Positions 9,492 through 18,339 of a DNA stretch of 23,050 nt are shown here, piece by piece. The DNA is from an archaeon. Its GTDB lineage: Archaea > Iainarchaeota > Iainarchaeia > Iainarchaeales > 1-14-0-10-31-34. A model generated the notes under the pieces. That model did no database searches, was not told the origin of the DNA, and saw only the letters and a list, made by a program, of their open reading frames with translations. The position numbers and the translations under genes are program-made. Each line of letters opens with the position of its first letter. The first letter of the stretch is position 1. The stretch spans positions 1-23,050 of the forward strand of contig JBDRIL010000011.1 in NCBI GenBank assembly GCA_043815885.1, given 5' to 3'.

Positions 9492-10034
9492 ATGAAGATT
9501 CTTGCTGTTTGCGGTTCGCCGAGGAAGGGAAATACTGAGGCAATGCTGAAAAGGATACTGGATGGAGCAAAAGGGAATGGAACGGAAATTGAATTAGTGT
9601 TGCTTAGGGATAAAGACATTAAGCTCTGTGATGGTTTGGCTCAGTGTGAAAACACTCATTCCTGCGTGATTCAGGATGAAATGATTCCTCTTTACGGGAA
9701 AATATTTGCTGCTGATTTAATTGTTTTGGGTTCGCCTACTTACTTCAATAATGTTTCTGCCTTAATGAAGAACTTTATTGACAGAATGAATCCTTTCTGG
9801 GAGGATGAAAGGCTGAAGGGAAAAAGGGTTGTGTTGGTTTCTGTTGGCGGGCAGGGAGGGAGTTCAGTTAAAAAATGCGAGAATGCAATGAGGGAGTTCT
9901 GTGAAATCTGCAGAATGAAGGTAATTGATTCCCTCAGAGCAAAGGCTGATTCTCAGAATCAGGCTCAAAAGAACGAGAAATTAATGAAGAAATGCTTTGA
10001 GTTTGGGAAAAAGTTGGCAGAAAGAAAGAATTAA
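9492..10034 (+). CDS. Flavodoxin-like / NADPH-dependent FMN reductase (iron-sulfur flavoprotein-like)
   Basis: MKILAVCGSPRKGNTE, a Cys cluster CDGLAQCENTHSC and LGSPTYFNNVSALMKNFIDR. Confidence 0.88.
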   Translation: MKILAVCGSPRKGNTEAMLKRILDGAKGNGTEIELVLLRDKDIKLCDGLAQCENTHSCVIQDEMIPLYGKIFAADLIVLGSPTYFNNVSALMKNFIDRMNPFWEDERLKGKRVVLVSVGGQGGSSVKKCENAMREFCEICRMKVIDSLRAKADSQNQAQKNEKLMKKCFEFGKKLAERKN

Positions 10035-10060: not shown

Positions 10061-10150
10061 TATCAAAAGACATTAAAAAAGTTTTATAATTAATGTCTTT
10101 TGATAGTTATCAAAGGACAAAAATATGGAAACAAAATTTGTCCTTTGATA
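10061..10150. repeat. Double-hairpin element, copy 1
   Basis: TATCAAAAGACATTAA(10061-76), 13-nt loop, TTAATGTCTTTTGATA(10090-105), GT, TATCAAAGGACAAA(10108-21), 15-nt loop, TTTGTCCTTTGATA(10137-50). Confidence 0.92.
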
Positions 10151-10169
10151 TAATTTAGAGTGATGGGAA

Positions 10170-11235
10170 TTGATTGATTTAAACCTTCCAGCAATTTTTG
10201 GGATTCAGGGAGAAAAAATACTTATTGCATTAGTAATTGTTGTAGCTTCTTTTGTTGTTGGAAAAGTCCTTTACTATTTGTTTAAGGTTTGGGGCAGGAA
10301 AATTACTGCTAAAACCCAGAATCGGTTTGATGATGTATTCATTGATATTGTGGAAGAGCCAATTGTATTTATTCTGGTGATAATTGGAATTTTCATTGCA
10401 TTCAGTCAGCTTGGAATAACCAATACTGGAATAATTGATTTATTCAATAAAATTATTGCTACCTTGGTGATTCTTGCTGTTAGCTTCTTTTTGATTAAGC
10501 TTGCTGATGCATTGATTGAATTATTTTTGGTTCCGATTACTGCAAAGACAAAAAGCACTCTGGATGACCAGCTTCTCCCGCTTCTTTCAAAGGGAATTAA
10601 ATTAATTCTGGGAATCATTGCCCTGATCATTGTTCTGAGTAATTTTGGAATAAATGTTACTGCATTGATTGCTGGATTGGGTATTGGTGGCATTGCTATT
10701 GCTTTTGCTGCTCAGAAAACCATTGAAAACATTTTTGGAGGGGGTTTCTCTCCTTATGGATAAATCCTTCAGAGTAGGAGATAAAATTAAGCTTGAATCA
10801 GGATTGTTTGGAACTGTAAAGGATCTTGGAATCAGAAGCACTAAAATCCAGACTCCTGATAACGAAATAATTGTTATACCTAATTCAATTCTGGCTAATT
10901 CAATACTGCAGAATGCTGCTCTTCCTACCTCCAGAACAAGGGTAAATGTTGATTTCGGTGTAGTGTATGGAAGCAATGTAGAGCAAGTGAAGAAGATTGC
11001 AGTCCAGGCAATAAAGGGAATGAAGGATGTGTTGCCTGAACCTGCCCCGAATGTTGACTTTGTTGCTTTGGGGGATTTTTCACTGAATTTCACTTTAAGG
11101 TTCTGGGTGAAGAGATGGCAGGACGTATGGCCTAACAAATTAGAGGCAAGAAAGAGAGTCTATGAAGCATTGAATAAGGCAAAGATTAACTTTGCTTTCC
11201 CTACCCAGACAGTTCACCTGGAAAAAGGAAGCTAA
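10170..11235 (+). CDS. mscS: Small-conductance mechanosensitive channel MscS (split by a +1 G frameshift at ~10740-10744)
   Basis: First ORF ends ...AGLGIGGIAIAFAAQKTIENIFGG; second frame continues VSLLMDKSFRVGDKI...IGIRST-like...IPNS...FAFPTQTV. Removing one G joins them. Confidence 0.88.
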
Positions 11236-11238
11236 TTA

Positions 11239-11400
11239 GTGACATCCTCCTCACACTAAAGTATGAGGCTTCCGTGGTCGACAACTGAAACACTTTTAGG
11301 AATCTTTCTTTTCACTGCCACGGTTAAGGGCATTGCCACATTGCCCGCTTCACCAAACATATAGCTTGATGAAAAAGTTTTTGCGAGATTTATTGCTGCA
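11239..11400 (-). ncRNA. Putative TnpB omegaRNA (reRNA) scaffold overlapping the tnpB 3' end; 5' boundary approximate
   Basis: Stems GGGCA/TGCCC (11328-11346), CCGTGG/CCACGG (11318-11323 with 11272-11277) and the RE hairpin (11249-11268), ending at TCAC. This is the established position of omegaRNAs. Confidence 0.7.
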
Positions 11401-12494
11401 TTCAAATCAGCGTTCAACTCATAACCACAGTCCTTACACTTAAAAACTGAACCAATTCTATTGCTTTTACTTGTAAAACCACATTTATTGCAACGCTGAG
11501 AACTAAATCTTGGAGAAACGTATGCAACAGGAACGCCATTCCAAGCAGCCTTATATTCAATAAAAAACTGTAACTGCCTGAAACTCCAAGAATGAATCAA
11601 GCCATTAACCTTCTTACTTGACTTCACTCGATTCCTAATATGCTTTAAGTCCTCTAAAACAATTACAGGGTCTTTAACCTGCAGTGCTTGTCTTACGATG
11701 AGCGCACTAACTTTATGATTCAAGTCCTGCATAAAATGTTTCTCCTTATATTTACTCTTTTTTACTCTCCAAAGTTTCTTTAAACGCATTAACTGTCCTC
11801 TGAATTTACTGAAATGCTTTCTAACAGCAATAGCCTGCCTTCCAGAAAAAAACCTTACACTCAAAGGCTTGTCTTTCCAAATCACAGAAGTGGAAATATT
11901 ATTCAAGCCTAAATCAACGCCAACAGGAACACTATTTCTATCCGGTTCTTTTATGATCACCTCCTTTTTAACAACAACATAAAAGAAAAAATCTCTTCCA
12001 CGCTTAACCAAATCAACGCAAGCCATTCCAAGTTCTTTATTCAATAATTTCCTCAAATACCTATATTGATGCCTTTGTCCCAGCAAAGGAACAAATACTC
12101 TGCCAGAACAAGTTGAAATAGAAGCAAAAAACTCAAGCTTGTTATCAGTTTTAATTACTTTAAAAGTTCTAGCATCCAACCTAACAGGAACTCCGTCAGA
12201 AAAAACAGGCACAGAAACCTTTAGACCTTTCTTTTTTCTATTCAAATAAGACTTAAATGCTTCAAAAGCCTTATCCCTAGAAGACTGCAGCAAAGCAGAA
12301 GGCAAAGGAGAAGACTTCCTCAATTCACTATAAGTCAATTGATGCAAAGCATTCCTAGAAACAACTTTTCTCTCAGCCATTACCCTGACATAATAATTCA
12401 ATAACGTCTCATTCTCAGTAAGCAACTCCAAAAATGCTTTCTTAACCTTGGTTGGATTAAACACTTTAACCTTAACAGTTTTAAAAACTTGCAT
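11256..12494 (-). CDS. tnpB: RNA-guided endonuclease TnpB
   Basis: RuvC-I VGVDLG, RuvC-II IVLEDL, zinc finger CNKC..CKDC, RuvC-III NADLNAAIN and WSFRQLQFFIEYKA; catalytic D/E/D are all intact. Confidence 0.95.
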   Translation of the reverse strand: MQVFKTVKVKVFNPTKVKKAFLELLTENETLLNYYVRVMAERKVVSRNALHQLTYSELRKSSPLPSALLQSSRDKAFEAFKSYLNRKKKGLKVSVPVFSDGVPVRLDARTFKVIKTDNKLEFFASISTCSGRVFVPLLGQRHQYRYLRKLLNKELGMACVDLVKRGRDFFFYVVVKKEVIIKEPDRNSVPVGVDLGLNNISTSVIWKDKPLSVRFFSGRQAIAVRKHFSKFRGQLMRLKKLWRVKKSKYKEKHFMQDLNHKVSALIVRQALQVKDPVIVLEDLKHIRNRVKSSKKVNGLIHSWSFRQLQFFIEYKAAWNGVPVAYVSPRFSSQRCNKCGFTSKSNRIGSVFKCKDCGYELNADLNAAINLAKTFSSSYMFGEAGNVAMPLTVAVKRKIPKSVSVVDHGSLIL

Positions 12495-12516
12495 ACAATA
12501 AAAAGAGTGATTAGAG

Positions 12517-12533
12517 GATTATAAACCATTTCG
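12517..12533 (-). promoter_or_regulatory. Putative BRE/TATA promoter for leaderless tnpB
   Basis: Minus strand CGAAATGG-TTTATAA lies about 25 nt upstream of the tnpB ATG. Confidence 0.55.
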
Positions 12534-12684
12534 GGAGAGTAGATTGCCGATGAAATTTTTCTTTCACCAACAATTTTCCCTACAAAACCACGAAAAACCC
12601 TGTTGACTTATTCAACAACCAAAACTGTTGGTTTTTCACGGCTAATTAATAAATTCTTTAGCCCTCTAATTATTAGTGATTGGA

Positions 12685-14583
12685 ATGGAAATAGATTACA
12701 GGGAGACAGGATTGAAGGTAGGATTGGAGGTTCATCAGCAACTGGATACTGGAAAGCTTTTTTGCAGGTGCCCTTCCATTCTGAGAGATGATTCCCCTGA
12801 TACAGTGCTTAACAGAAGATTAAGGCCTGTTGCATCTGAATTGGGGAAGTATGACCCTGCTGCATTGGAAGCATTCAGGAAAGGCTTGAGCTACAAATAC
12901 GAATTTTTTGATGATTCAAATTGTTTGGTTGAAGCAGATGAAGAACCGCCAATGGAAATGGATTCTGAAGCCCTGGGAATTGTTCTCCAGATTGCTTTAA
13001 TGAGTGAATCAAGTATCCTGAATGAACTGCATGTAATGCGGAAACAGGTGATTGACGGTTCAAACACAAGTGGATTCCAGAGGACTGCAATGATTGCATT
13101 GGGAGGAAAATTAAAGCTGAAGAAAAAGGAAATAGGAGTTCAAACAATTGTATTGGAAGAGGATGCTGCCCGTCCAATGAGCAAGAGTGAAAAAGAGATT
13201 GTTTACAGATTGGATAGAATGGGGATTCCGTTAATTGAATTGGCAACTGAACCCGAAATATTTTCTCCAGAAGAAGCAAGGGAAGCAGCTTTGGCAATAG
13301 GAGAATTATTCAGGAGGACAGGAAAGGTAAAGAGGGGTTTAGGTTCAATAAGACAGGACGTAAATATTTCTATTGCAAAGGGAGCAAGGATAGAGGCAAA
13401 AGGAATACAGGAACTGGAATTAATCGGGGAATACGTTAAGGGGGAAGTGGAAAGGCAATTGAATTTACTGGAGGTAAAGAGGGAATTAACAGAGGAAAGA
13501 AATTTGAAGGAAGAAGAATTAAGCTCAAAGGCAATTGAATTAAATGAATTGCTTAAGGATTCAACTTCAAAATTAATTAAGGGAAATCTAAGCAAAGGAA
13601 ACAAAGTGTTGGGAGTGAAATTAAAATCATTTAATGGATTGCTGGGAAAGGAATTGCAGCCCAACAGAAGGCTTGGAACAGAGTTTGCTGATTATGTGAA
13701 GGCAAGAAGCGGACTGAAAGGAATAATTCATTCAGATGAGCTTCCTGCATACGGAATTACCGAAAAAGAGAAAAAAGAAATAAGTGAAAGGCTGGAGTGC
13801 GGGGAAGGAGATGCTTTTGCCTTTGTTTTGGGAGAAAGAGAAAAAGCAGAGAAAGCGATTTCAGTTGTGATTGAGAGAGCAATTTATTGCTTGAAGGGAG
13901 TGCCGGAAGAAACAAGGAATGCGATTGGAGAAGGAAATACCGAATACTCAAGGCCTTTGCCTGGGGCTGCAAGAATGTATCCGGAAACAGACATCAGATT
14001 AATCAGGGTGGATGAAAAGGAATTAGAGGAAATGAAGAAGAACCTTCCTCTGAGTATAGAGCAGAGATATTTATTGTATTTGAATAATTATAAATTGAAT
14101 TCTCAGTTGGCTGAAAAAATGAAGCTAAGCAATTACGCTCCGTTCTATGAGAAACTAGTTGGAAAAGGCCTTGATGCTACAAATTCTGCTGTACTGCTTC
14201 TGGAGGGATTAACGCAATTAAAGAGAGAGAGAATTGCCGTAGAAAAAATCTCCAATGAAATGATTGAAGAGGTTCTTCTTGCATTAAAGGAAGAAAAAAT
14301 TACGAAAGAAGTAATGCTGAAGGTTTTAAGTGAATGGATAAAGAAACCATCCAAAAAATTAAAGGAAGTAATTGATTCCCTTGAACTGGAAAAAATCAGC
14401 GAAAAGGAACTGAAGAAATTAATAAAGGAAGTAATTGAGAAAAATGAAGCTTTATTCAAGACTCCAAATGTAAACATCCAGTCAGCCTTAATGGGAGACG
14501 TAATGATTCAGGTAAAAGGCAGGGCCTCAGGGAAACTAGTGAACAAAATTTTAAGCGAAGAATTAGAGAAGATGGAAAAATGA
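12685..14583 (+). CDS. gatE: Glutamyl-tRNA(Gln) amidotransferase subunit E
   Basis: GLKVGLEVHQQLDTGKLFCRCP, IDGSNTSGFQRT, LEEDAAR, RGLGSIRQDVNISI and RPLPGAARMYPETD; alternative GTG start at 12676. Confidence 0.96.
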   Translation: MEIDYRETGLKVGLEVHQQLDTGKLFCRCPSILRDDSPDTVLNRRLRPVASELGKYDPAALEAFRKGLSYKYEFFDDSNCLVEADEEPPMEMDSEALGIVLQIALMSESSILNELHVMRKQVIDGSNTSGFQRTAMIALGGKLKLKKKEIGVQTIVLEEDAARPMSKSEKEIVYRLDRMGIPLIELATEPEIFSPEEAREAALAIGELFRRTGKVKRGLGSIRQDVNISIAKGARIEAKGIQELELIGEYVKGEVERQLNLLEVKRELTEERNLKEEELSSKAIELNELLKDSTSKLIKGNLSKGNKVLGVKLKSFNGLLGKELQPNRRLGTEFADYVKARSGLKGIIHSDELPAYGITEKEKKEISERLECGEGDAFAFVLGEREKAEKAISVVIERAIYCLKGVPEETRNAIGEGNTEYSRPLPGAARMYPETDIRLIRVDEKELEEMKKNLPLSIEQRYLLYLNNYKLNSQLAEKMKLSNYAPFYEKLVGKGLDATNSAVLLLEGLTQLKRERIAVEKISNEMIEEVLLALKEEKITKEVMLKVLSEWIKKPSKKLKEVIDSLELEKISEKELKKLIKEVIEKNEALFKTPNVNIQSALMGDVMIQVKGRASGKLVNKILSEELEKMEK

Positions 14584-14750
14584 TTAGTCATGCCCCAAAA
14601 AAACAACCATTTAAAAAAATTAATTTTTTGGATTTAGGGTTTGGTGATACTAAAAGATTAAGGGAAATGGCAAGAAGGAAAAGAAGTAAAAATAGAGGAT
14701 TAATGGGGGCAGAATTTGAAAAGCAGAAAGCAAATTGTTTCCTCAACTGA
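14580..14750 (+). pseudogene. Truncated class I SAM-dependent methyltransferase-like fragment (56 aa)
   Basis: ATG overlaps the gatE stop (ATGA). Translation MISHAPKKQPFKKINFLDLGFGDTKRLREMARRKRSKNRGLMGAEFEKQKANCFLN* has a motif-I-like FLDLGFG and a post-I-like LMGAE. Confidence 0.45.
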
Positions 14751-14846
14751 TAAAGGAATTCATTAACGACAAAAAAATCTAGGACGGCAACTTTTTCTAA
14801 TTCAGTATTTTTGTATTGGTGAAACAAAATACTTATAAATTATTTG

Positions 14847-14864
14847 GTATATACCTGTATATAC
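14847..14864 (+). promoter_or_regulatory. Tandem palindromic operator-like sites (GTATATAC x2) just upstream of the ATG at 14866
   Basis: GTATATAC at 14847-14854 and 14857-14864 (10-bp periodicity), downstream of a TATA-like CTTATAAA. Confidence 0.55.
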
Positions 14865-14865
14865 T

Positions 14866-15702
14866 ATGCTTAGGACGATTAATGTTGGGGAAGAGATTGA
14901 AAAAGAAGTTGTCAGGTTTGGGAATGGGAGCATTGTTTACACTCCAAAAAAATGGATCGGAAAGAAAGTTCTGGTTATTTTGGAGGAAAGGCCTTTAGAC
15001 GTAAAAGGAGAGGTAATGGAAATATTGAAGCCGCATCTTGAAAGCGTTAAAGGAGTTTTCCTGCATGGATCTTTTGCCAGAAACGAGCAGACAAGTGATT
15101 CAGATGTCGATGTACTGGTTGTCAGTGACAAGAAATTTAAGTTAGGAAAAGCAGAGAGGTTTGATTTCACTGTAATTGATGAAGAAACCTTGAGGAAGGA
15201 GTTAAAAGGAAGTGACCCTTTCTACATTTATTCTGTTCTCAAGGAAGCCAAACCTATCCTGAATGAAGAACTATTAAAGGAATTAAGGGAAATAAAAATC
15301 AATAAATACGACTTCAAGTGGTTGTTGGAGGAAAGCGAAAGCGCGTTAAAGATTGCTGAAGAATTCTTGAAGCTTGACAAATTACAGAAAAGAAAGAAAC
15401 TTGATTCAATTGCCATAATTTACACCATGATTTTAAGATTGAGGAGACTTTTCTTGGTTAAATGCCTTCTAAAAAACAAGGATTACTCAAACAAAGAATT
15501 CAGGGCATTCCTGAATAAAAAAGGCCTGTCGAAAGAATTGGTTGAAGATTTTTATGACATTTATAGGGCTGAGAGAGATGAACGAAAAACAATGAAAAGT
15601 GTTTCCATTGAAGAGAGTGAAAGATTATGCCAAATAACCAATAATGAAATAAATGAAATGAAAGGGAGTTGGAAAAAATGGCGTCAAAAAAGAAAGCATT
15701 AA
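14866..15702 (+). CDS. DUF2080/AbrB-like domain + MNT nucleotidyltransferase + helical (HEPN-like) C-terminal domain fusion
   Basis: N-terminal EKEVVRFGNGSIVYTPKKWIGKKVLVIL, central FLHGSFARNEQTSDSDVDVLVV and a helical C-terminus with YDIYRAERD. Confidence 0.75.
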   Translation: MLRTINVGEEIEKEVVRFGNGSIVYTPKKWIGKKVLVILEERPLDVKGEVMEILKPHLESVKGVFLHGSFARNEQTSDSDVDVLVVSDKKFKLGKAERFDFTVIDEETLRKELKGSDPFYIYSVLKEAKPILNEELLKELREIKINKYDFKWLLEESESALKIAEEFLKLDKLQKRKKLDSIAIIYTMILRLRRLFLVKCLLKNKDYSNKEFRAFLNKKGLSKELVEDFYDIYRAERDERKTMKSVSIEESERLCQITNNEINEMKGSWKKWRQKRKH

Positions 15703-15845
15703 AAGGGATAAAAAGCATTGAAAAGAGATTAGAAGAACACGAAGAAAAACTCGCTAAAGCAATACCGGAAGAAGGAATGCAGTACTTAACGCGAGACATT
15801 CACAGATTAAAGAAACAAAAAGAGAAAAAAGAAAGGCAATTGTAA
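15678..15845 (+). CDS. Small basic coiled-coil protein (55 aa, below the ORF track threshold)
   Basis: MASKKKALKGIKSIEKRLEEHEEKLAKAIPEEGMQYLTRDIHRLKKQKEKKERQL*. It overlaps the upstream gene end and has GGGAG about 8 nt before the ATG. Confidence 0.7.
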   Translation: MASKKKALKGIKSIEKRLEEHEEKLAKAIPEEGMQYLTRDIHRLKKQKEKKERQL

Positions 15846-15903
15846 AGGAAACCAATCAATTCTAATCCATTAAAAAAACTTTAGTGGCTCTTTATTAATT
15901 GAA

Positions 15904-16746
15904 ATGAATAATTGTTCTTTTGTTTCTTTTTCGGATGCAAGGAAATGCCTGAAGAAGAGGCTTCCTGATTTTCATAAGGGAGAAGCTGGAACAGTGCTTG
16001 TTGTTGGAGGGAGTAAGGACTATATTGGTTCTCCTGCATTGGCTGGATTGAGTGCATTGCGAAGTGGAGTGGATTTAGTGAAGGTTGCTGCCCCGGAGAA
16101 TGCTGCTTACTGCATTAATTGTCTTTCCCTTGATTTGGTTACGGCTAAATTTGACGGAGACTACTTCAATAAAAGCCATGTAAAAGAAATCACTTCTTTA
16201 AGCAAGGAATTTGATTCAGTTCTTTTGGGAAATGGAATCAGCTTGAATAAAGGGACAAGAGAATTCATGAGAAAATTGATTCCAAAAATAAAGAATAATT
16301 TAATTCTTGATGCAGATGCGATAAAGGCAGCAAAAGGATTGAAATTGAAAGGAGTTTTATTGACTCCGCATATGGTTGAATTCAAGGAAGTTTTTGGAGA
16401 AATTCCCCCACTAAAATTAAGTGAGAGAATTAAATTAGTAAAAGAAAAGGCAGGGAAGAGCAATTCAGTTATTTTGTTGAAGGGAAGGATTGACGTAATC
16501 GCTGAAAAGGAAAAAACAAAGCTTAATTCCACTGGCAATGCAAGGATGGCTGTAGCAGGGACAGGAGATGCATTGGCTGGATTAGCTGCAGGGTTTGCTG
16601 CCCAGTGCGGAGACTTATTTGATGCTGCGTGTGCTGCTGCATTTGTGAACGGAAAGGCAGGAGAACTTCTGGCAAGAGAAAAAGGCAATTCATTTATTGC
16701 TTCTGATTTAATTGAAGTTTATCCTAGAATATTAAAGAAAAAATAA
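15904..16746 (+). CDS. nnrD: ADP-dependent NAD(P)H-hydrate dehydratase
   Basis: HKGEAGTVLVVGGS..YIGSP.LAG..ALRSGVDLV, ILDADA, LTPH..EF and MAVAGTGDALAG. Confidence 0.92.
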   Translation: MNNCSFVSFSDARKCLKKRLPDFHKGEAGTVLVVGGSKDYIGSPALAGLSALRSGVDLVKVAAPENAAYCINCLSLDLVTAKFDGDYFNKSHVKEITSLSKEFDSVLLGNGISLNKGTREFMRKLIPKIKNNLILDADAIKAAKGLKLKGVLLTPHMVEFKEVFGEIPPLKLSERIKLVKEKAGKSNSVILLKGRIDVIAEKEKTKLNSTGNARMAVAGTGDALAGLAAGFAAQCGDLFDAACAAAFVNGKAGELLAREKGNSFIASDLIEVYPRILKKK

Positions 16747-16757
16747 AAAAAGGATTA

Positions 16758-16844
16758 TATCAAAAGACATTAATTATGGAACTTTAATGTCTTTTGATAG
16801 CTATCAAAGGACAGATTTTGTTTCTATATTTTTGTCCTTTGATA
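16758..16844. repeat. Double-hairpin element, copy 2
   Basis: TATCAAAAGACATTAA(16758-73), 10-nt loop, TTAATGTCTTTTGATA(16784-99), GC, TATCAAAGGACA(16802-13), 19-nt loop, TGTCCTTTGATA(16833-44). Confidence 0.92.
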
Positions 16845-18230
16845 TTAGTCTACTTGCTCAAATCGTGCCTGGAAGAACCTTAGGTCTTTTGGCTCGTGGA
16901 CCATGTTCAGGCCTTTTGCCTTGTCCCTGTTTTCATGGCATCTGATTGCCGAGTCTGCAACGAATTCCATGTGGGAGTTAGTGTAAACCCTTCTTGGAAT
17001 TGTCATTCTAACTAATTCCAGTTTTGGGTAAATGTTTTCTCCTGTTTCTGGATCTCGGCCCTTGCTTACTGCGCCTCTTTCCATGGTTCTTACTGCTGCA
17101 TCCTCGTAAACCAATGCAGTTAATGCCTGTGCAGGGAACTGCTCTCTGGGTAAGTGAGGCAGGAATTTCAGTGCATTCAGGTAAACTGCATGTCCTCCTG
17201 CTGGCCTTACAATCGGAACCTTTGCCTTATCCAGTAAATCCCATAAATACTGTATTTGTCCTATTCTGAATGAAAGATAAGTTGCATCTGCTCCTTCCAC
17301 TAAACCTCTTGCTAATGCTTCCATGTCTCTTCCGGCCATCCCTCCATAGGTATGCAATCCTTCATATACTACTACCCTGCTTCTGCATGACTCATATGCT
17401 TGCTTGTCGTGGCTTGCAATGAATCCGCCAATATTAACCAGACAGTCTTTTTTTGCACTATAGGTGCAGTAGGCAGAATAACTCATCATTTCTTTAAGGA
17501 TTTCAGGAATTGTTTTGTCTTTATAGCCTTTTTCTCTGCTCTTAATGAAATAAGAATTTTCTGAAGAACGGGTTGCATCAATATGGACCGGAATCTTGTA
17601 TTCATCGCATAATTCCTTTACCTTTCTGTAGTTTTCCATTGAGACTGGCTGGCCGCCGGCCATATTGCAGTCTGCTTCAACGCTCACAAAAGGAATTTTT
17701 TCAACACCATTTTCTTCAATCACTTTCTCTAACTTCTTTAAATCAATGTTTCCCTTGAAGGGGTGCTCTGATTCAGGGTCATGGGCTTCATCAATTATTA
17801 CGTCAACCATTTTTCCTCCAGGGATTTCTACATGCTGTTTGGAGGTAGTGAAGTACATGTTTCTTGGGACAATGCTTCCCTCTTTAGTCAGGCAACTGAA
17901 AAGTAAATGCTCTGCGCCTCTTCCCTGATGAGTTGGAACAGTGTACTCATAGCCAAGGATTTTTTCAATTGAATCCCATAAATGCCTGAAATTCTTGCTT
18001 CCAGCGTAAGCTTCATCCCCTAACATTAATCCAGCCCACTGATTTTCACTCATTGCATTGGTTCCAGAATCAGTCAGTAAATCAATATAAACATCCTCTG
18101 ATTGAAGCAGAAATGTATTGAATCCTGCCTCTCTTATTGCTTCCTTCCTTCTTTTAGGGGAAGGAAGATTTATTGGTTCAACCATCTTTATCTTGTATGG
18201 TTCAGCTAATACCCTTTTTTCAGTTGCCAT
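16845..18230 (-). CDS. tpl: Tyrosine phenol-lyase (PLP beta-eliminating lyase)
   Basis: AEPYKIK, GFNTFLL, YIDLLTDSGTNAMS, GDEAYAGS, NMYFTT, SAKKDCLVNIGG (PLP Lys), MERG and LRFF (tryptophanase has LRHF). ATG at 18230 follows a G-rich SD. Confidence 0.85.
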   Translation of the reverse strand: MATEKRVLAEPYKIKMVEPINLPSPKRRKEAIREAGFNTFLLQSEDVYIDLLTDSGTNAMSENQWAGLMLGDEAYAGSKNFRHLWDSIEKILGYEYTVPTHQGRGAEHLLFSCLTKEGSIVPRNMYFTTSKQHVEIPGGKMVDVIIDEAHDPESEHPFKGNIDLKKLEKVIEENGVEKIPFVSVEADCNMAGGQPVSMENYRKVKELCDEYKIPVHIDATRSSENSYFIKSREKGYKDKTIPEILKEMMSYSAYCTYSAKKDCLVNIGGFIASHDKQAYESCRSRVVVYEGLHTYGGMAGRDMEALARGLVEGADATYLSFRIGQIQYLWDLLDKAKVPIVRPAGGHAVYLNALKFLPHLPREQFPAQALTALVYEDAAVRTMERGAVSKGRDPETGENIYPKLELVRMTIPRRVYTNSHMEFVADSAIRCHENRDKAKGLNMVHEPKDLRFFQARFEQVD

Positions 18231-18339
18231 TAAATAACCCCCTCTCGCCCAATTATTTAACTGCTGCAAGGCTTTTTATTTCTTTTGCAGGCAAAAAAAC
18301 AAAAACTATTTATTTCTCTTCCTTCTTTATTTTAATCGC

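Follow-up and report, generated by a model that had tools for sequence, protein, structure and literature searches.

A dispersed double-hairpin element with MITE-like anatomy in Iainarchaeota-type DPANN archaea

An element of about 90 bp, built of two adjoining hairpins and present twice in the 23,050-nt stretch of archaeal DNA analyzed here (the window), is MITE-like by its anatomy and circulates in Iainarchaeota-type DPANN archaea. It is almost certainly a mobile element that makes a 3-bp duplication. We consider it probable that the element is non-autonomous, that its duplication stems from a staggered cut, and that it is moved in trans by a conventional transposase, most plausibly of the DDE type. 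The reading as a MITE-like non-autonomous transposon follows from the duplication, an empty site, a symmetric target, and an unbiased placement confined to intergenic DNA. As in MITEs, there are terminal inverted repeats and a fixed-length duplication with an empty site, and the copies are small, non-coding, numerous, and dispersed; the 3-bp duplication at TWA/TNA is that of Tourist-like MITEs.

A sequence-only reading of the window had described two double-hairpin elements of about 90 bp, each with four boxes oriented > < > <, and the eight exact TATCAAARGACA boxes listed in Table 1 bear this out. The window holds no further exact TATCAAARGACA box; when up to 2 mismatches were allowed, 15 matches were found against a shuffle mean of 8.2, a count reached by none of 100 shuffles. 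Folding reproduced the stems read from the letters, namely 16 bp for hairpin A in both copies and 14 bp (copy 1) or 12 bp (copy 2) for hairpin B, with a 2-nt junction whose palindromic surroundings in copy 2 (TTTGATAGCTATCAAA) can be seen directly. Folded as single-stranded DNA, either strand yields the two hairpins, with free energies of -22 to -25 kcal/mol (z of -9.1 to -10.4) that were equaled in 0 of 200 shuffles. The plan of the element is TATCAAAAGACA-loop-TGTCTTTTGATA, 2 bp (mostly GC), TATCAAAGGACA-loop-TGTCCTTTGATA. Its outer boxes, TATCAAAAGACA and TGTCCTTTGATA, match as inverted repeats at 11 of 12 positions and are present in 67 of 67 distinct elements; these two boxes are the terminal inverted repeats, and the inner two repeat these sites, tip against tip across a 2-bp spacer, so that each end of the element is a perfect hairpin. 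The whole is, in effect, a tandem pair of two 43-45-bp mini-palindromes moving as one unit. In copy 1, the inter-box segment of hairpin A has the minority "f" orientation, and in copy 2, it falls 3 nt below the family consensus length; relative to copy 1, copy 2 has both loops inverted.

Table 1. Coordinates of the two double-hairpin elements in the window
Feature	Position	Strand	Basis or remark
Copy 1, exact TATCAAARGACA boxes	10061-10072, 10094-10105, 10108-10119, 10139-10150	+, -, +, -	
Copy 1, left target-site duplication, TAA	10058-10060	.	sequence, flank table
Copy 1, hairpin A: TATCAAAAGACA + 21-nt inter-box segment + TGTCTTTTGATA	10061-10105	.	16 bp stem
Copy 1, junction, GT, 2 bp between abutted box tips	10106-10107	.	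sequence
Copy 1, hairpin B: TATCAAAGGACA + 19-nt inter-box segment ("f") + TGTCCTTTGATA	10108-10150	.	14 bp stem
Copy 1, right target-site duplication, TAA	10151-10153	.	sequence
Copy 2, exact TATCAAARGACA boxes	16758-16769, 16788-16799, 16802-16813, 16833-16844	+, -, +, -	
Copy 2, left target-site duplication, TTA	16755-16757	.	sequence
Copy 2, hairpin A, inter-box segment in "r" (majority) orientation	16758-16799	.	16 bp stem
Copy 2, junction, GC, 2 bp	16800-16801	.	sequence
Copy 2, hairpin B, loop in "r" orientation	16802-16844	.	12 bp stem
Copy 2, right target-site duplication, TTA	16845-16847	.	minus strand: also TAA stop of tpl-like gene

The suggestion that the two copies belong to a dispersed archaeal repeat family of alternating palindromic boxes was upheld by scans of the source genome and related genomes, which revealed many copies. 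The source genome, that of a small DPANN archaeon (91.7% complete, 62 contigs), contains 29 exact hairpins and 73 exact boxes, and with about 25 copies in this genome, the element is not a lone pair. Of these, 20 are full A+B units, 87-94 bp long, and 5 are degenerate or partial; together they are spread over 18 contigs. Every full unit consists of one A and one B hairpin, with no A-A or B-B unit among them. Among 196 genomes of the order (Iainarchaeota-type DPANN archaea), 21 carry exact hairpins; in the source family, they occur in none of the 8 other genomes, one of which holds a decayed copy. The exact junction was found at 27 genome-contig loci assigned to Ca. Iainarchaeum, Diapherotrites, or uncultured archaeon MAGs, and a hairpin A adjoined 29 of the 31 metagenome loci found via hairpin B. 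At the tpl-like and nnrD-like orthologues of 6 relatives, the element is absent.

Insertion takes place at T-W-A, rarely at TGA or TCA, in a symmetric AT-rich target, of which 3 bp are duplicated. The flanking T-N-A triplets were identical in 56 of 67 distinct copies and non-identical in 11 when counted by script, which gave 17 of 19 in the source genome with one copy left unparsed (18 of 20 by eye) and 39 of 48 elsewhere; by our own estimate from flanks of 76% A+T, chance identity would be about 3%. The matched flanks (n = 57) were TTA in 28, TAA in 25, TGA in 3, and TCA in 1, and their surroundings are two-fold symmetric, with T at -6 in 32 and A at -3 in 32, then TWA, followed on the right by T at +5 in 34 and A at +8 in 33. 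Comparison of filled and empty orthologous intergenic regions, a check already suggested from the sequence, uncovered a precise empty site: G082 reads ...GCTATTTAA[element]TAAGCCCGC, whereas the congeneric G084 reads ...GCTGTT-TAG-GCCCGC, with one triplet; over 800 bp, the identity of either flank is about 90%. G083, too, is without the element here. G082 versus G084 is the one strict filled/empty pair, a second candidate having run into a contig end. Congeneric genomes can differ in whether an otherwise conserved site holds the element.

The gene neighborhoods read from the sequence were confirmed. Copy 1 lies between a co-oriented FMN reductase gene (9492-10034, +) and an mscS-like gene (from 10170, +), and copy 2 between convergent genes for NAD(P)H-hydrate dehydratase (15904-16746, +) and a beta-eliminating lyase (tpl-like; 16845-18269, -), adjoining the stop codon of the latter's 476-codon open frame at a distance of 0. 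The stop codon of this tpl-like gene was recreated from the duplication. Between the two window copies lies a TnpB gene of the IS200/IS605 type (11256-12494; Cas12f1-like_TNB at 9e-24), of which there is a second copy with 90% identity. All 25 source-genome copies lie in intergenic DNA, and a crude ORF-based gene call puts the coding share of this genome at 91.7%. Under that same call, their gap classes (tandem 12, divergent 10, convergent 3) are roughly proportional to intergenic length (background shares of 53.5/31.4/15.1%), consistent with the earlier remark that a single promoter or terminator role does not explain the copies, and no bias toward gene starts or ends was found among them. 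About 25 intergenic insertions therefore point to selfish DNA rather than to a gene-control site. Copies persist between genes only, and the overall behavior of the family is that of selfish DNA; individual copies may influence adjacent genes.

A site maintained by the host and spread secondarily, such as an operator array, a terminator or mRNA-stabilizing hairpin, or a chromosome-organization site recognized by a cellular protein, would fit a box that is near-invariant over families of the order, a 12-2-12 junction resembling a dimer-binding site, the duplication supplying the stop codon of a long gene in 4 of 20 source-genome copies, and the position of many copies 19-57 bp ahead of a start codon. 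We nevertheless regard this explanation as highly improbable, given the patchy occurrence in the order and in the source family, the relatives without the element at the tpl-like and nnrD-like genes, the lack of gap-class or orientation bias, the congeneric empty site, and the degenerate copies left to decay. Rfam likewise gave 0 matches in the window at gathering score, and the long (nested) forms returned chance-level miRNA matches only (E of 0.17 or worse). Because the family is patchy and one insertion is missing at the matching congeneric site, the earlier proposal of a fixed multi-box protein-binding array for chromosome organization is unlikely.

The same reading had offered a REP/BIME-like family spread by HUH (RAYT) enzymes, of which the palindromic extragenic doublets stand, while the mode of spread conflicts with the duplication, the empty site, and a source genome without Y1. 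In its wider form, this alternative holds that a REP/REPIN/BIME-like or PATE-like element moves as single-stranded DNA through an HUH Y1 transposase (RAYT or IS200/IS605 TnpA). Transposition of the IS200/IS605 type is not known to make a target duplication, and here a variable 3-bp duplication is matched on both sides and the empty site carries one triplet. The likeness is nonetheless close: in REPINs and BIMEs, as here, extragenic inverted doublets form hairpins, the doublet rather than the single unit replicates, conservation of the units is strong, and units can be nested or arranged at a higher order (PMC3116915, in part). Co-varying stem arms, the IS200/IS605-type TnpB genes of the source genome, and the lack of an autonomous copy with the same ends, as with single-copy RAYTs, also speak for it. 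Against it, the 12-bp box of the present element is not itself a palindrome, and the Y1_Tnp profile (PF01797) had no match in the source genome, the genome searched for it, with a positive control in 6 of 14 reference genomes; the co-occurring HUH/Y1 transposase envisaged earlier was thus not found there. The resident TnpB element (repeat boundaries 11239-12556), considered as a source, has no box within 2 mismatches. An origin as a PATE or IS200/IS605 derivative was also rejected, as the element has terminal inverted repeats and a duplication. We judge movement by Y1 very unlikely; since REP elements make no duplication and no Y1/RAYT gene was found in the source genome, the element is better described as MITE-like.

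For the MITE-like element, a dimeric transposase supplied in trans would bind the boxes and make a 3-nt staggered cut in the target. IS5-family and PIF/Harbinger groups prefer TNA/TWA targets, and from duplication length and target, the best guess would be a DDE enzyme of this kind. Tourist-like and IS5-family MITEs (IS1031/ISL2/IS427; PIF/Harbinger in eukaryotes) are likewise short, non-coding, multi-copy, and intergenic; they too end in inverted repeats and duplicate 3 bp at T-W-A/T-N-A within a symmetric AT-rich target. Canonical Harbinger elements make 3-bp duplications and Harbinger/ISL2EU/IS5 relatives 0, 2, or 3 bp (PMC12730594, in part). The present element differs from such MITEs in its second, inner pair of terminal boxes abutted over 2 bp, and in that the carriers searched yielded no IS5/Harbinger-type transposase with matching ends. 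Indeed, no gene is flanked by boxes in the source genome, and none lies between hairpins at 44 hairpin-A loci (2.5-kb flanks) or 31 metagenome loci (3-kb flanks). The source genome has no match to the eight Pfam families searched (DDE_Tnp_1, DDE_Tnp_4, Y1_Tnp, Mrr_cat, DDE_Tnp_1_2, rve, Resolvase, and DDE_3), including the IS5/Harbinger-type profiles PF01609, PF13359, and PF13586. Across the carriers searched with members of this set of transposase/nuclease families, no transposase had matching ends. Two candidate partners were set aside: the DDE_Tnp_1 (PF01609) insertion sequences of G041 and G042 have unrelated ends (GGCGGTGTAGAAATG) and 9-bp duplications, and the ends of a DDE_3 element in one carrier do not match. 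As no autonomous partner was found, it is the duplication and the target that point to an IS5/Harbinger-like enzyme, a specific assignment that we offer tentatively, at less than even chances.

The abutted inner boxes invite two further comparisons. Circle and tandem-dimer intermediates of IS30, IS3, and IS21 contain IR-IR junctions with tips abutted 2-3 bp apart, much like the present inner junction (...TTTGATA-GC-TATCAAA...); in the present element, however, the junction is permanent and internal, and an rve-type transposase was found in 1 of 5 carriers. The 12-2-12 layout also resembles a hix-like serine-recombinase crossover site, a candidate that was rejected because PF00239 gave 0 matches in 5 carriers, with a positive control in 12 of 14 reference genomes.

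The 12-bp boxes are nearly invariant over families of the order, and the loops drift. In 48 elements from other genomes, boxes were 98% identical to the consensus and loops 75-79%, and in the two sets of hairpins whose sequence the search pattern left free, 377 of 396 and 290 of 300 stem-pair positions were at consensus. Inner boxes are conserved as strongly as terminal ones, a single purine invariably distinguishes the two hairpins of an element, and of 67 distinct elements, 55 have a GC junction and 3 a GT junction. Stem arms co-vary: the same free hairpin sets contained 11 compensated pairs (positions 1, 4, 5, 10, and 12) versus 12 mismatches and 6 wobbles. Loops flip between paralogous copies, A and B independently (ff 3, fr 2, rf 3, and rr 11 in the source genome; rr 39, fr 5, ff 2, and rf 2 in other genomes), and oppositely oriented loops can be exact reverse complements. 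Since stem-arm changes are often matched and loop inversion in A is independent of that in B, the hairpins may at some stage exist as folded DNA; both arm matching and loop inversion would result from template switching or recombination between arms, as with the "small inversions" at plastid hairpins. Loop inversions of this kind, bounded by hairpins, have been described from plastomes (PMC6824564, in part, citing Kelchner & Wendel 1996), where loops between perfect inverted repeats likewise occur in both orientations, recurrently and independently; those lie at fixed loci between species, whereas the present flips separate paralogous copies of a mobile element. That neither conserved inner boxes nor arm co-variation is required by a plain two-end DDE model counts as a weakness of that model.

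These features, together with a second box family, bear on a further alternative, a new class of modular double-hairpin mobile elements in which an enzyme outside the transposase families searched would recognize folded hairpin or cruciform DNA rather than a duplex end, and in which this mechanism would dictate the common plan of the box families. The second family, in G118 (25 exact hairpins) and G119 (17), has the same plan, TAGCAGACCA-loop-TGGTCTGCTA, 2 bp, TAGCAAACCA-loop-TGGTTTGCTA, with the box TAGCARACCA, hairpins that also differ by one purine, and TA flanks. It is nested exactly in the junction of a TATCAAARGACA element, where one TA is turned into two, and a third, GC-rich double hairpin is nested inside it. 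Small dispersed repeats and nested mini-palindromes of cyanobacteria are likewise tiny mobile palindromes that become inserted into each other, but in hosts of another domain and with unrelated sequences; such cyanobacterial repeats are named in PMC3116915 (in part). The co-varying arms, the flipping loops, the inner boxes conserved like the outer ones, and the lack of a known transposase family common to the carriers searched would suit a new class. However, a 3-bp staggered duplication in a symmetric target is an ordinary DDE transposase outcome, 2-bp TA and 3-bp duplications both fall within the Harbinger/ISL2EU/IS5 group (PMC12730594, in part), and any perfect inverted repeat can passively acquire co-varying arms and flipped loops (PMC6824564, in part). 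Moreover, the carriers are represented by incomplete MAGs or SAGs, and assemblies of this kind often miss insertion sequences; the transposase search covered eight Pfam families. Overall, we consider a new class unlikely.

Taken as MITE-like, the element is unusual in its four-box build, its conserved inner boxes, the constant one-purine difference between its hairpins, its co-varying stem arms and independently flipping loops, the nested second box family of the same plan, and the lack of a transposase with matching ends in the carriers searched. There is a small chance that the order carries an unrecognized double-hairpin class with at least two unrelated box families of the form [X-loop-X'] + 2 bp + [Y-loop-Y']; in this improbable case, X and Y would differ by one purine, TATCAAARGACA would go with a TNA duplication and TAGCARACCA with TA, and the families would insert into one another's junctions, with matched stem arms and flipping loops. 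If true, this would mean a folded-DNA stage in transposition and, because none of the families searched is common to the carriers, an enzyme outside the recognized transposase families.

The TATCAAARGACA element is mobile and duplicates 3 bp of its target. Both window copies are bracketed by 3-bp direct repeats (TAA...TAA at copy 1; TTA...TTA at copy 2, where the repeat doubles as the stop codon of the lyase gene), a feature missed in the sequence-only reading. A script found identical triplets on both sides of 56 of 67 distinct full elements (17/19 parsed in the window's own genome, 39/48 elsewhere), and inspection by eye gave 18/20 for the own genome. Among the 57 elements whose flanks match, the triplet always began with T and ended with A, with a middle base of T (28), A (25), G (3), or C (1). 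Because this middle base varies between copies and is the same within a copy, the target, rather than the element, is the source of the triplet. The comparison of filled and empty sites proposed in the sequence-only reading yielded one strict pair: genome G082 reads ...GCTATTTAA-element-TAAGCCCGC, and the congeneric genome G084 reads ...GCTGTT-TAG-GCCCGC with a single triplet, both flanks being 88-90% identical over 800 bp each. Genome G083 likewise lacks the element at this site, and a second G082 locus reached the contig end in G084. Orthologues of the tpl-like and nnrD-like genes flanking copy 2 had no element downstream in six relatives, though their neighbor genes differ and these are therefore not strict empty sites; the comparison at copy 1 likewise gave orthologues with no element and other neighbors. 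The reconstructed targets are two-fold symmetric, with T(-6), A(-3), TWA, T(+5), and A(+8) each present in 32-34 of 57 sites, as expected if an enzyme of matching symmetry cut the target with a 3-nt stagger. A preference for hairpin-forming targets was rejected, since flank pairing (3.88 of 12) was no better than that of shuffled partners (3.84).

The structure drawn from sequence inspection held up in each of its parts. All eight perfect TATCAAARGACA boxes in the window fall within the two elements, four in each, in the order > < > <; with two mismatches allowed, 15 matches were found against a shuffle mean of 8.2, and no shuffle reached 15. Folding of single-stranded DNA returned two adjacent hairpins from either strand of either copy, with the 16-bp stem A and 12-14-bp stem B originally described, at -22 to -25 kcal/mol and z scores of -9 to -10. 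The gene neighbors were also correctly named: an FMN reductase gene and an mscS-like gene, both on one strand, flank copy 1, and copy 2 occupies the gap where an NAD(P)H-hydrate dehydratase gene converges with a beta-eliminating lyase (tpl-like) gene. In the window, the mscS-like gene is divided between two frames that overlap; a single continuous frame in relatives, together with one base missing at 10740 in one contig of run X1, suggests that the frameshift may reflect an assembly error or a strain difference instead of a pseudogene. Every full unit in the own genome consists of an A hairpin (box ...AAAAGACA), 2 bp, and a B hairpin (box ...AAAGGACA). The box tips at the inner junction (...GATA / TATC...) abut across these 2 bp, so that the element can be read as a tandem pair of 43-45-bp mini-palindromes; the spacer was GC in 55 of 67 elements, TA in 4, AC in 4, GT in 3, and TT in 1.

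Our genome-wide scan, which the sequence-only reading had proposed as a check, bore out the idea of a dispersed archaeal repeat family of alternating palindromic boxes. The own genome (1.16 Mb in 62 contigs, 36.8% G+C, 91.7% complete) contains 29 exact hairpins and 73 exact boxes, making up 20 full units of 87-94 bp. The remaining copies are two full units in a degenerate state, a B hairpin standing alone between TAA/TAA flanks of its own, a lone and degenerate A hairpin, and one partial copy; solo units are rare. Four copies cluster on one 22.5-kb contig of this genome. Of the 196 genomes in the order, 21, spread over 10 families, had exact hairpins. The other 8 members of the window's own family had none, and one of these 8 has a decayed copy, again with TAA/TAA flanks. 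The exact inner junction occurs at 27 loci of public archaeal assemblies titled Ca. Iainarchaeum, Diapherotrites, or "uncultured archaeon." Among metagenome contigs, 31 carry the exact B hairpin, with an A hairpin two bases away in 29; the viral contig set gave 0 matches to hairpin A or hairpin B, and a 14-base pattern searched against the genome contig set gave only chance matches in unrelated bacteria. Three public runs containing parts of the window are labeled as groundwater metagenomes.

Relative to genes, the family shows no positional rule. With a crude ORF-based gene call (1224 genes, 91.7% of the genome covered), all 25 own-genome copies were intergenic, located in tandem (12), divergent (10), and convergent (3) gaps, where the background shares of intergenic length are 53.5, 31.4, and 15.1%, respectively. 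This spread agrees with the original argument that no single promoter or terminator role explains the copies. The duplication forms the stop codon of a long gene in 4 of 20 full copies, and many copies lie 19-57 bp upstream of a start codon, so individual copies may matter locally. At the gathering score, Rfam gave no match in the window, and longer forms of the element gave only chance miRNA matches.

To avoid circularity, conservation was scored solely in hairpins left free by the search pattern. B hairpins beside pattern-matched A hairpins agreed with the consensus at 377/396 stem-pair positions, and A hairpins beside pattern-matched B hairpins at 290/300. In 48 elements of other genomes, boxes were 98% identical to the consensus and loops, taken in their better orientation, 75-79% identical to the own-genome loop consensus. 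The stem counts and box identity indicate that the inner boxes are as strongly conserved as the terminal ones. Deviations in the unbiased stems comprised 11 changes compensated on the opposite arm (positions 1, 4, 5, 10, and 12), 12 mismatches, and 6 wobbles. The two hairpin types differ by A/G, and this difference, too, is a compensated pair, present in every element; no A-A or B-B units were seen among the elements examined. One hybrid hairpin, found in genome G052, combines a left arm of type B with a right arm of type A, as would result if deletion or recombination joined the two hairpins of a single element.

Loop orientation varies between copies. Both loops of copy 2 are reverse complements of those of copy 1 with the A-then-B order unchanged, another feature missed at first. 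Scored as forward (f) or reversed (r) for the A loop and then the B loop, with calls less certain for the most diverged loops, the states were ff 3, fr 2, rf 3, and rr 11 in the own genome (A-first orientation) and rr 39, fr 5, ff 2, and rf 2 in other genomes. Oppositely oriented loops of different copies can be exact reverse complements, indicating that the flips are recent and recurrent and that A and B flip independently. Inversion of a loop bounded by a perfect stem is the phenomenon known as homoplastic "small inversions" in plastid DNA (PMC6824564), and the element's flips appear to be the same. Arm-to-arm templating could be a common source of the loop flips and the compensated arm changes. 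The hairpins also recall parvovirus flip/flop hairpins and Hin/hix half-sites; the former likeness was rejected because flip frequencies outside the own genome are far from 50:50, and the latter because the Resolvase profile search found no serine recombinase in the five carriers covered.

The most unusual result is that a second, unrelated box family follows the same plan, with a pair of hairpins separated by 2 bp and distinguished from each other by one purine. Longer forms of the TATCAAARGACA element, in the Ca. Iainarchaeum andersonii genome containing locus L026 and in a congener, carry inserts exactly at the inner junction, and the insert is a double hairpin of the second family: TAGCAGACCA-loop-TGGTCTGCTA, 2 bp, TAGCAAACCA-loop-TGGTTTGCTA. 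Exact hairpins of these TAGCARACCA boxes number 25 and 17 in the congeneric genomes G118 and G119 (loci L314-L323), and there are none in three other carriers searched. The family also stands alone with TA flanks, and at nested sites (L166, L169, L204) the single TA of the host junction is doubled. A GC-rich third double hairpin, with small hairpins CCTTGTCCCC..GGGGACGAGG and CCTAATGCCC..GGGCATAAGG, lies inside the TAGCARACCA insert, giving a long form of ~235 bp (L166, L169, L170, L171); the whole string has a fold z of -6.9 and no Rfam match. In G082, the B> box of one element is interrupted by a palindromic unit (ttgttgaata...tattcaacaa), pointing to a further family of small insertions. 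We consider it rather unlikely that the plan common to the two box families reflects a mechanism of its own.

Our search for the enzyme covered box-flanked genes and eight Pfam families. No box-flanked gene was present in the own genome, and no gene lay between the hairpins, as in an autonomous form, at 75 flanked loci (44 from genome contigs, 31 from metagenomes). Profile searches of the own genome found no DDE_Tnp_1 (PF01609), DDE_Tnp_4 (PF13359), Y1_Tnp (PF01797), Mrr_cat (PF04471), DDE_Tnp_1_2 (PF13586), rve (PF00665), Resolvase (PF00239), or DDE_3 (PF13358), and each search detected its family in control genomes. Because all genomes are incomplete and eight families were searched, the absence of an enzyme is weak evidence. 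Transposase and nuclease matches present in carriers were rejected as movers of the element because their ends are unrelated: DDE_Tnp_1 insertion sequences in two other carriers have GGCGGTGTAGAAATG ends and 9-bp duplications, and in one carrier the ends of a DDE_3 element do not match the boxes. A G082 gene between two inverted elements reads by eye as an Lrp/AsnC-type regulator, and its position was taken as coincidence. Apart from TnpB genes, which do not encode transposases, no transposon-type gene was seen in the own genome; one TnpB gene lies between the window copies, in an element with a second copy elsewhere (90% nucleotide identity) and no box in a window search allowing two mismatches.

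Coordinates of elements, genes, and repeats (window positions unless a contig or locus is named)
Feature	Position	Strand	Remarks
TATCAAARGACA element, copy 1	10061-10150		
TATCAAARGACA element, copy 2	16758-16844		
mscS-like gene, first frame	10170-10763	+	overlaps second frame
mscS-like gene, second frame	10669-11235	+	
TnpB-type gene	11256-12494	-	412 aa; Cas12f1-like_TNB 9e-24, weak OrfB_IS605 match
TnpB element, repeat boundaries	~11239-12556		
TnpB element, second copy	C38 (17321-18638)		own-genome contig
NTP_transf_2/Polbeta nucleotidyltransferase-domain protein	14866-15702	+	weak N-terminal DUF2080 "putative transposon-encoded protein," E 1e-4
Duplicated 1.39-kb pair	C37:15308-16694 / C40:12108-13494		own genome; 84%
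Clustered element copies	C50: 7039, 15650, 19059, 21885		own genome (G000)
Hybrid B>...<A hairpin	G052:C9:46264-46306		
Gene between inverted elements	L201:2501-3325		G082; 184-codon frame
Interrupted B> box	L228:2480-2680		G082
Long form	L166:148-380		

With its inverted ends, fixed-length duplication, empty site, small size, lack of coding sequence, and multiple copies, the TATCAAARGACA element is by structure a MITE. The alternative first put forward, a REP/BIME-like repeat spread by HUH (RAYT) enzymes, accounts for the alternating palindromes; it fails on the 3-bp duplication, the empty site, and the suggested look-up of an HUH/Y1 transposase, as Y1_Tnp had no match in the own genome and was matched in the control genomes. 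The REP/REPIN/RAYT and PATE definitions (PMC3116915) likewise do not fit, given the duplication and the lack of a Y1 match in the own genome. Enzymes of the IS5 / ISL2 / PIF-Harbinger group make duplications of 0, 2, or 3 bp (PMC12730594) and would be the best-fitting known enzymes by duplication length, which is 3 bp in the TATCAAARGACA family and 2 bp in the second family. The element works like a Tourist/IS5-type MITE, with family membership unproven because no matching transposase was found. The full-text literature searched holds no description of the TATCAAARGACA family, and a listing in the supplement of a MITE census (PMC11602168) is possible.

For annotation, these results remove a tempting false lead: the family does not serve adjoining genes as operators, terminators, or REP sites, whether in the window or elsewhere in Iainarchaeota. 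Perfect palindromes are likely spots for assembly breaks and, through loop flips, for spurious "divergence," and the filled and empty sites are usable as a typing marker for closely related DPANN populations. The element is active in ~1-Mb genomes in which the searched transposase families with matching ends were not found, raising the testable question of which enzyme moves it and whether folded DNA is the substrate. For the biology of mobile DNA, it represents a very small element, ~90 bp built from two 43-45-bp palindromes, whose inner sites are constrained like its ends and whose architecture is repeated by a second, unrelated box family.
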